Part shown: positions 7,326 to 8,209 of the stretch, piece by piece | How positions within the stretch are numbered: position 1 is the stretch's first letter | How the letters are laid out: each line of letters opens with the position of its first letter | Origin: a virus | Length of the DNA: 10,734 nt | Reading direction: 5' to 3' (one strand) | UHGV virus genome: UHGV-1689382 | Program-made: the position numbers and the translations under genes | The notes under the pieces: generated by a model | Database searches by the model: none | The model's input: the letters and a program-made list of their open reading frames with translations, nothing else | Told to the model about the DNA's origin: nothing

Positions 7326-7494
7326 CCCATCCCAATCCCTTCAATACCAGAAAGAAAGCGTCGAGCGGGCTTTAACGTGCGCTAACTGCGGTCAGAAGCT
7401 GCATGTGCTTGAAGTTCACGTGTGCTCCGATTGCTGCGCAGAACTGATGAGCGATCCGAATAGCTCAATGTACGAGGAAGAAGACGATGAATGA
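7318..7494 (+). CDS. ninF: NinF-like protein (58 aa, Cys-rich)
   Basis: Hand translation [58 protein letters not shown]. From [24 protein letters not shown] onward it matches lambda NinF as I recall it. Overlaps both neighbours; absent from the ORF track because it is short. Confidence 0.7.
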
Positions 7495-8209
7495 GTTAAT
7501 AAATGGCAATGCCATCAAAATGACAAGCATTGAAATCGCTGAGTTGGTGGGTAAGCGTCATGACAATGTGAAACGTACCATCGAAACGCTGGCTAAAAAT
7601 GGTGTTATCCGGCTTCCTCAAATTGAGGTTTCCGAAAGAATCAATAACTTAGGGTTCAATGTTCAGTACGAGCATTACGTCTTCGAGGGCGAACAAGGTA
7701 AGCGAGACAGTATTGTCGTTGTTGCCCAGTTGTCGCCAGAGTTCACCGCTCGCCTTGTTGACCGCTGGCGAGAGCTTGAAGAAGCTGCGGTTAATATCCC
7801 CAAAACGCTACCGGAAGCGTTGCGCCTTGCTGCCGATCTTGCTGAGCAGAAAATGCAACTGGAAAACCAGCTCGCAATTGTCGCACCTAAAGTTGAGTTT
7901 GCCGATCGCGTTGGCGAGGCCAGCGGAATTTTGATTGGAAACTTTGCAAAGGTTGTTGGTATTGGTCAAAACAAACTGTTTGCGTGGATGCGTGATCACA
8001 AAATCCTTATTGCTTCAGGTTCCCGGCGCAATGTGCCAATGCAGGAATATATGGATCGCGGCTATTTCACAGTGAAAGAAACAGCGGTCAACACAAATCA
8101 CGGAATACAGATATCGTTCACCACAAAAATCACCGGGCGCGGTCAACAGTGGCTGACCAGAAAGTTGCTCGATAACGGAATGCTGAAAGTAACAGGGGAG
8201 GCTGCTTAA
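7487..8209 (+). CDS. Phage antirepressor / regulatory protein: Rha-like N-domain + KilA-C (ANT) C-domain
   Basis: N-terminus MTSIEIAELVGKRHDNVKRTIETL is typical of the Rha (Phage_pRha) family. C-terminus (GNFAKVVGIGQNKLFAWMRDHKIL...GYFTVKE) is typical of the KilA-C antirepressor domain. 240 aa, inserted between ninF and the ybcO-rusA-ninH block. Confidence 0.75.
   Translation: MNELINGNAIKMTSIEIAELVGKRHDNVKRTIETLAKNGVIRLPQIEVSERINNLGFNVQYEHYVFEGEQGKRDSIVVVAQLSPEFTARLVDRWRELEEAAVNIPKTLPEALRLAADLAEQKMQLENQLAIVAPKVEFADRVGEASGILIGNFAKVVGIGQNKLFAWMRDHKILIASGSRRNVPMQEYMDRGYFTVKETAVNTNHGIQISFTTKITGRGQQWLTRKLLDNGMLKVTGEAA

Follow-up and report, generated by a model that had tools for sequence, protein, structure and literature searches.

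A candidate operator and a predicted integration host factor site within roi, a nin-region gene of a lambdoid phage genome, and a tentative recognition code for Roi-type Rha proteins

Roi was defined in phage HK022, where it is reportedly a helix-turn-helix (HTH) protein whose binding site is located inside roi and close to a site for integration host factor (IHF). It is said that IHF stabilises the complex and that Roi prevents lytic growth in IHF-deficient hosts, and the C-terminal half of the protein is said to resemble P1 Ant1 and KilA. To our knowledge, earlier reports describe only this binding of the HK022 protein "within its own gene" and not a family-wide arrangement. In this report we examine the roi gene of UHGV-1689382, a viral DNA of 10,734 nucleotides (nt) that will be called the window; all coordinates are window positions unless another sequence is named. 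The sole experimental report on Roi (Clerget & Boccard 1996, J Bacteriol 178:4077), as it is represented in the papers that cite it, describes a DNA-binding protein with a link to IHF. Additionally, Henthorn and Friedman (1995) determined that phage growth is inhibited in IHF-deficient hosts by Rha of phi80 and by orf201 of P22.

The gene at 7487-8209 of the window is roi, a long-known accessory gene of the lambdoid nin region, and both the gene and its location were known before this work. Our analysis adds precise candidates for the published Roi and IHF sites, which are predicted within the codons of the DNA-binding domain. We think it likely that this known nin accessory gene carries a candidate operator dyad next to an IHF site, with IHF-assisted autoregulation as the most likely function. 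The features within the gene are as follows.

7487-8209, plus strand: roi coding sequence, allele A (CUS-3/HK620 type), ATG start, 240 amino acids (aa), from the list of open reading frames (ORFs)
7520-7783, plus strand: Rha-type winged HTH domain, N-terminal, aa 12-99 (Pfam Phage_pRha, PF09669)
7550-7675, plus strand: hypervariable allelic segment comprising the recognition helix and the wing, aa 22-63 (alignment)
7559-7600, plus strand: predicted recognition helix, aa 25-38, with specificity positions N27, R30 and T34 (AlphaFold2 model; mutual information with the dyad)
7616-7628, no strand: perfect 13-bp 6+1+6 dyad CCTCAAaTTGAGG, candidate Roi operator, within codons 44-48 (PQIEV) (offset conservation; covariation with the helix)
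7639-7651, plus strand: IHF consensus AATCAATAACTTA (WATCAANNNNTTR), within codons 51-55 (RINNL), the only perfect match in the window
7808-7918, plus strand: long linker helix, aa 108-144 (AlphaFold2 model)
7862-8170, plus strand: ANT/KilAC domain, C-terminal, aa 126-228, nearly invariant among alleles (Pfam PF03374, E 8e-33; alignment)

The DNA of the window gene is 99.3% identical to roi of CUS-3, the best match, and 98.3% identical to roi of HK620 by megablast. The next-closest relatives after CUS-3 are HK633, HK620, HK140 and many Shiga toxin (Stx) phages, in which the gene is annotated as roi or "DNA-binding protein Roi". The protein is 88% identical to HK022 Roi over 240/241 aa (E 4e-157) and is essentially identical to it from aa 64 on; all but two of the differences from the HK022 and HK97 proteins fall within aa 22-63, and at least eight roi alleles were distinguished among E. 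coli-type sequences. By megablast, 220 phage records contain roi, as do 1112 of 5426 complete E. coli genomes. With more than 7000 protein clusters that match it at E ≤ 1e-10, the ORF is taken to be a genuine and broadly conserved gene that is not due to chance.

In eight allelic variants from other assemblies, roi is always found in the nin slot upstream of Q, with ninF, an ORF6N/P22_AR_C gene or P63C as the 5' neighbour and ybcO-rusA-ninH or ninG as the 3' neighbour. In some prophages (L086, L087, L090 and L091) the ORF6N/P22_AR_C ("Ant"-like) gene replaces ninX-ninF directly upstream of roi, and such a gene upstream of roi has also been noted for Stx phages (PMC3430580). The database also contains Roi variants of 294-304 aa that have N-terminal extensions or are NinB-Roi fusions (PF05772+PF03374; proteins P0001, P0002, P0006 and P0007), and these are probably due to deletions or frameshifts in individual assemblies.

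The candidate operator was examined by anchoring sequences on the conserved helix-2 motif and scoring dyad symmetry at every offset out of six pairs. Across 13 lineages the column at +84 nt from the anchor had a mean score of 4.69/6, compared with 1.55 overall (z 4.9) and 3.62 for the next column. Among 57 unique, mostly non-enterobacterial viral sequences, the mean in the same column was 5.37/6, with 5/6 or more pairs in 91% of the sequences and a mean of 3.42 in the next column. The changes in the dyad are compensatory at this fixed codon offset across the 13 and then the 57 lineages. The peptides encoded by the dyad codons differ (PQIE, PALQ, PPMG, PPMV, PPVA, PPLV and TQFE), and coding constraint therefore does not account for the symmetry. 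Wing residue 47 is E, G, V, A or Q depending on the dyad class, and its identity seems to be imposed by the operator.

Other alleles have different dyads in the same codons (CCTGCAtTGCAGG, CCCCCAaTGGGGG and CCGCCAaTGGCTG; CCTGCAtTGCAGC in HK022), and the HK022 counterpart is located at nt 130-142 of roi (HK022 genome 34784-34796, CCTGCATTGCAGC). Only one copy of the allele-specific dyad occurs in each of the complete genomes of CUS-3, HK620, HK022 and HK97, and extra copies in the flanking DNA occur at chance level only. A single-copy dyad that lies within roi agrees with the binding "within its own gene" reported for HK022 Roi, and there is good support for the view that the candidate site at 7616-7628 corresponds to the Roi site reported for this homologue.

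Several other sites were considered and rejected. A one-mismatch copy of the A-type dyad (CCTCAACTGGAGG) in gene O, at 3559-3571, was rejected as a second Roi target because it is also found in HK97, which has allele D, so that the copy travels with gene O; it is probably due to chance. Three of the six perfect 13-bp palindromes in the window are located in roi (P ~0.002, chosen after the fact); those at 7503-7515 (ATGGCAATGCCAT) and 8065-8077 (TTTCACAGTGAAA) were rejected as Roi sites, being kept only in the close E. coli clade. No family-wide dyad column was found in the KilAC half of roi.

The relationship between the recognition helix and the dyad was analysed in 47 unique helix/dyad combinations. 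Each residue type at position 27 (helix index 3) occurs with a single base at dyad position 3 (N with T in 25 combinations, S with A in 10, K with C in 6, D with G in 4, E with G in 1 and A with T in 1), and the symmetric partner at position 11 follows. Residue 34 (index 10) is associated with positions 5/9, where R occurs with C in 27 of 28 combinations and T, S or N with A in 19 of 19, and residue 30 (index 6) is associated with positions 4/10, where R or Q occurs with C and I or V with G. The mutual information is 1.67 bits for residue 27, 0.85-0.94 bits for residue 34 and 0.6 bits for residue 30, values that were reached by none of 5000 permutations. Control third-codon positions outside the dyad gave 0.17-0.42 bits with residue 27, which serves as an estimate of the share due to common ancestry.

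Dyad position 3 falls on the third base of a Pro (or Thr) codon, where changes are synonymous, and therefore protein-protein co-evolution cannot account for its link to residue 27. The three residues are spaced i, i+3 and i+7 on the predicted helix and read consecutive base pairs, and the pairings are consistent with direct readout of the usual kind (Asn with A·T, Lys and Arg with G·C, Asp/Glu with C·G). A single additive rule is obeyed by the residue combinations (N,R,T), (N,R,R), (N,I/V,R), (S,R,R), (S,R,T), (K,Q,R) and (D/E,R,R) at positions 27, 30 and 34. Twelve phage records were fetched after the rule had been derived, seven of them within the subfamily and five with more distant Rha-type genes. 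The half-site predicted from the helix was found in 7/7 of the subfamily members (SSU5, Ralstonia Heva, Vibrio VaK, Vibrio D60, ICP1, Klebsiella phi13.5 and APSE-7), five of which have a dyad symmetry of at least 5/6, and no dyad was found at the +84 offset in the five more distant Rha-type genes.

The dyad is kept in Yersinia, Pantoea and Buttiauxella sequences in which the C-terminal domain is not KilAC, and it therefore belongs to the N-terminal module. In four sequences from Yersinia, Pantoea, Serratia and Buttiauxella (L100, L101, L103 and L105) KilAC is replaced by another C-terminal domain, one with no assignment, in fusion with the Roi-type N-terminal module; the IHF site is found in three of the four (not in Buttiauxella) and a good dyad also in three (not in Serratia). 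Judged by their predicted domains, this is domain shuffling around a constant cassette made up of the DNA-binding domain and its operator.

We tentatively propose, with slightly more doubt than confidence, that the Roi-type Rha winged-helix module is a self-contained specificity cassette that carries its operator in its own wing codons and follows an additive helix code across hosts. The dyad would be located ~60 nt 3' of the recognition-helix codons, and residues 27, 30 and 34 would each determine one base pair of the half-site (3, 4 and 5, respectively). At base pair 3, N would specify T, K would specify C, S would specify A and D/E would specify G; at base pair 4, R/Q would specify C and I/V would specify G; and at base pair 5, T/S/N would specify A and R would specify C. 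This code would extend from the prophages of E. coli to Vibrio ICP1 and to phages of Ralstonia and of alphaproteobacteria, whatever the C-terminal effector domain. The protein and its site would be inseparable by recombination, and the cassette could therefore move freely through mosaic phage genomes. No earlier description of the family-wide operator arrangement and code was found in the searchable literature, which is incomplete, and we tentatively regard both as new.

The second element, the IHF consensus, begins 10 bp 3' of the dyad. There is one match to WATCAANNNNTTR in the 10.7-kb window and one in the 12.7-kb right arm of HK022, at the homologous place (nt 153-165 of roi). The bases A ATC AAT NNN TTA GG are invariant in six of the eight alleles and the neighbouring codons are heavily diverged. 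Within the consensus of these six alleles, Ile is always encoded by ATC, Asn by AAT and Leu by the rare codon TTA, and the alleles differ only in the central free bases (AAC, GAT or GGG) and in the third base of the next Gly codon. The invariance of the synonymous bases points to a constraint on the DNA. The same consensus is found in P22 rha (L203:2076-2681), where it reads GAA AAA ATC AAT AAC TTA GGA (EKINNLG) and is also located in the wing-coding region. The roi and rha families, the two that are known for the IHF phenotype, thus have in common an IHF consensus within the wing-coding part of the gene. Two alleles have no IHF consensus: allele F (L088/L089) has a perfect dyad (CCCCCAATGGGGG), and allele G (L090/L091) has a dyad with only 3/6 pairs.

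A mechanism can be proposed in which a Roi dimer reads the dyad through N27, R30 and T34, which would determine base pairs 3, 4 and 5, respectively, in both half-sites. Binding of IHF at 7639-7651, 10 bp from the dyad, would stabilise the Roi-dyad complex, and the Roi-IHF complex could act as an intragenic roadblock that limits the expression of roi and possibly the read-through towards Q, a step with moderate support. In the absence of IHF, the complex would fail and Roi would accumulate, and the excess of Roi, probably via KilAC, would poison phage development. An excess of the protein as the cause of the block matches the usual explanation for rha.

Several points weigh against autoregulation through the dyad and IHF. 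The dyad is only a candidate for the site of the 1996 HK022 footprint, and the steps of roadblock and autoregulation and of KilAC toxicity are ones that we infer. The sequences are related, the code was derived after the fact and the permutation test ignores phylogeny, so that ancestry is addressed only by the control positions and by the combinatorial backgrounds. The expected IHF footprint of ~35 bp reaches into the dyad, which makes joint occupancy uncertain. Many members have the dyad and no IHF site; IHF is therefore a lineage-specific addition that is not integral to the module. A good dyad is absent from allele G, from the Serratia sequence, from a truncated Yersinia copy and from the more distant Rha subfamilies. 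An mRNA hairpin with a 5-bp stem and a 3-nt loop is also energetically feasible (-2 to -7 kcal/mol) and is weighed below.

The two halves of the protein differ in what can be said about them. An earlier note on this DNA, made from the sequence alone, had proposed a Rha-like N-terminus and a KilA-C C-terminus, and this was borne out by Pfam, in which Phage_pRha (PF09669) scored 36.7 bits against a gathering cut-off of 29.9 and ANT/KilAC (PF03374) scored 113.5 bits against 25.3. The protein also matches PHROG 63, "anti-repressor Ant" (E 9e-100). It scored 18 bits against NCBIfam TIGR02681 (phage_pRha), which is below the curated cut-off of 45.95, and these profile scores place Roi in the Rha superfamily as a divergent branch outside the TIGR02681 subfamily. 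No P22_AR_N/C or AntA/B domains were found in Roi by Pfam, and a PDB sequence search with Roi gave no match.

An AlphaFold2 model was built from 68 homologues (mean predicted local distance difference test score 78). Its N-terminal part consists of a strand (11-13), two helices (14-21 and 25-38) and a beta-hairpin (45-52/58-67), which together make up a winged HTH. The wing is followed by two helices, the long helix 108-144 and a second HTH-plus-hairpin unit that corresponds to KilAC; in the model, the long linker helix is a possible dimerisation element. Jerseyvirus f2SE and Jedunavirus KpV52 also have the Rha+KilAC architecture, and Vibrio phage ICP1 has the Roi N-terminal module; we take all three to be virulent phages.

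Roi is located among the nin genes of the window, and the following features bear on its expression.

7318-7494, plus strand: ninF (Pfam NinF, E 8e-14), with an 8-nt overlap with the start of roi (ATGAATGA) and translational coupling
7474-7478, plus strand: Shine-Dalgarno-like GAGGA within the end of ninF, 8 nt 5' of the roi ATG, read off the sequence
8209-8499, plus strand: ybcO (hkbD; Pfam YbcO, E 2e-44), the start of which shares 1 nt with the roi stop (TAATG)
5749-5772, plus strand: tR2-like intrinsic terminator 5' of the nin genes (terminator scan)

By Pfam, the gene order of the region is NinB, an HNH/NUMOD4 endonuclease-like gene, NinX, NinF, roi, YbcO, RusA, NinH and Q. The earlier note had described a 240-aa ORF that overlaps both of its neighbours, a lambda nin region without such a gene and a 434-type immunity, and all three descriptions hold: the ORF list gives overlaps of 8 nt with ninF and 1 nt with ybcO, lambda has NinG directly after NinF with no roi-like gene between them, and the cI of the window matches the phage 434 repressor in a PDB search (E 9e-38). 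The position between ninF and ybcO-rusA-ninH is likewise as described, but it does not represent an unusual insertion, as this is the standard roi slot that is common to HK022, HK97, HK620, CUS-3 and Stx phages. Overall, the window has the mosaic make-up that is typical of lambdoid phages, and no single record covers more than 78% of it.

HK620 is annotated with tR2 at the place equivalent to window positions 5749-5772. Roi belongs to the delayed-early pR operon, and the presence of a tR2-like terminator upstream of the nin genes means that its expression should need N antitermination. No promoter-like site was found upstream of roi, no LexA box with one mismatch or fewer was found near it, and no tRNA or Rfam family bearing on roi was found. 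With no promoter of its own, coupling to ninF, the tR2-like terminator upstream and no LexA box, Roi should be made only after the resident CI has been inactivated.

Other observations were made in the window. The HNH/NUMOD4 homing-endonuclease-like gene (6206-6808, plus strand) is located between ninB and a ninE-like ORF, and its presence in the relative L085 and absence from the otherwise similar L084 suggest that it is a mobile insertion in the nin region. A 158-aa ORF (1596-2072, minus strand) with a signal-peptide-like segment overlaps the 434-type cI and lies immediately 3' of it; this could be a moron in the rex/sieB position. A terminator-like hairpin is found on the antisense strand within roi (7872-7857, minus strand), and it may be connected with the antisense transcripts from Q up to roi that have been described for the prophage Gally of E. 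coli LF82 in macrophages (PMC9928086). Neither tRNA genes nor an Rfam family nor any assigned protein is present in the region 3' of Q (9529-10734), which includes a terminator-like hairpin at 9677-9702 that presumably belongs to the pR'/qut/tR' region.

The function of Roi can also be approached from its C-terminal half. Azulay et al. (2022) determined that the KilAC domain of AriS and of two homologues inhibits the SOS response, and that the N-terminal domains of such proteins alternate between AntA/B, Bro-N and pRha; Roi has the combination pRha+KilAC. By analogy, Roi could be a dual regulator in which the N-terminal domain acts on phage DNA and KilAC acts on a host target, damping RecA/SOS in coordination with other prophages. 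KilAC is nearly invariant across the roi alleles and the N-terminal specificity region is variable, a pattern that would be expected if the host target is conserved. The data on AriS, however, were obtained in Listeria and mostly by overexpression, and we regard a dual role of this kind as unlikely for Roi, although it is compatible with IHF-assisted autoregulation by the N-terminal half. The SOS activity of AriS is the best-documented precedent for the function of KilAC.

The earlier note had offered a different role for the same domain, in which Roi could counteract a heterologous repressor of a co-resident prophage or modulate the 434-type immunity. As a classical antirepressor, Roi would use its KilAC half to bind a CI-type repressor, either the resident 434-type CI or that of a co-resident prophage, and abolish its activity, promoting induction. 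The Pfam ANT/KilAC and PHROG "anti-repressor Ant" assignments are in line with this, P1 Ant1, which has been reported as an antirepressor (Azulay et al. 2022), has the KilAC domain too, and a delayed-early product could act in trans on other prophages after induction. KilAC is the only domain that Roi has in common with P1 Ant1, and other activities of KilAC are documented. In contrast to what characterises the antirepressor class (P22 Ant, P1 Ant1, Gifsy GfoA/GfhA and 186 Tum), there is no regulated expression unit of its own at roi (no promoter, immI-type control region or LexA box was found), and roi would come to expression only when its own CI is no longer active. Allele A (98-100% identical) stands beside three CIs (434-type, CUS-3 and HK620) that are 42-53% identical and have dissimilar DNA-binding domains. 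CUS-3 has a separate ant/mnt module, an ORF6N/P22_AR_C gene adjoins roi in some relatives, Roi has no P22_AR domains by Pfam, and the occurrence of Rha+KilAC in f2SE and KpV52, virulent by general knowledge, means that the architecture is not limited to temperate phages. We know of no interaction between Roi and a repressor, and the experimental data on Roi, as represented in the citing papers, concern only DNA binding and IHF. The proposed antirepressor role thus found no support, the label resting on a domain name only, and we consider it very unlikely.

It is also conceivable that the dyad is not a Roi operator and is instead an mRNA hairpin with a signal function in processing, pausing or translation, or a site to which another factor binds. 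The compensatory changes do keep a 5-bp stem with a 3-nt loop (predicted -2 to -12.6 kcal/mol). However, the dyad bases track the amino acid of the helix and not its codon (T is found at position 3 whether Asn is encoded by AAT or by AAC), the pairings agree with the chemistry of direct readout, the helix positions involved are spaced i, i+3 and i+7, and the 6+1+6 symmetry is not fully usable by a hairpin. Roi has, moreover, been reported to bind inside roi. We judge an explanation without Roi to be highly improbable. Hardly any credence is given to a tethering or partition-like role, in which the single-copy site and a winged HTH-coiled-coil protein would anchor or mark the phage genome in the manner of Spo0J/parS or pSK1 Par.

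Thousands of prophage Roi/Rha/KilAC proteins, including those of Stx phages, are automatically annotated as "anti-repressor Ant", and correcting this label matters since it is used in arguments on induction and toxin release. If the operator is embedded and read by an amino-acid-to-base code, the family would constitute a natural set of orthogonal repressor/operator pairs, and the Roi cassette would be a clean test system for winged-helix recognition rules. It would also offer a concrete account, open to testing, of the IHF dependence seen with Roi and Rha, a question that is ~30 years old; the intragenic IHF site in the enterobacterial members and in P22 rha would explain the "no growth without IHF" phenotypes of Rha and Roi.

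The locus can be compared with several known systems. HK022 Roi has the same gene order (ninF-roi-ybcO-rusA-ninH-Q), a 241-aa ORF and the intragenic IHF consensus, and differs in the allele at aa 22-63, where the helix is HSNVKVSIDRL instead of the HDNVKRTIETL of the window and the dyad is CCTGCAtTGCAGC instead of CCTCAAaTTGAGG; a different operator specificity is therefore predicted for the two proteins. The Rha proteins of phi80 and P22, after which the N-terminal domain is named, share with Roi this Pfam Phage_pRha domain and the class of IHF phenotype, and P22 rha has the identical IHF consensus. P22 Rha differs in that its C-terminal domain is ORF11CD3 and not KilAC, its gene is located in the late region after the lysis genes, its helix is of another type, and the dyad found 8 nt 5' of the IHF consensus is of the form 6+4+6 (AGCGCAttttTGCGTT), unlike the 6+1+6 dyad of Roi.

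AriS of Listeria phage phi10403S combines a conserved ANT/KilAC C-terminus with an exchangeable N-terminal domain, for which pRha is among those listed, and the activity of its KilAC domain is inhibition of SOS and not repressor binding (Azulay et al. 2022). It differs from Roi in its AntA/AntB N-terminus, and an intragenic operator has not been described for it. P1 Ant1 and KilA have the KilAC domain (PF03374) in common with Roi. The ant gene of P1 is under immI c4 antisense control and its product acts on the C1 repressor; an immI-type control region of this kind was not found at roi.

Operators within genes are known from other systems, including LacI O2 in lacZ, the PurR roadblock in purB and parS inside spo0J of B. 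subtilis. The spo0J/parS arrangement is similar to that proposed for roi in that the site is inside the gene of its own binding protein. The candidate Roi site differs from LacI O2, PurR/purB and spo0J in that it lies within the codons of the DNA-binding domain itself, and the specificity residues and their target would therefore be ~60 nt apart and inherited as one mosaic block.

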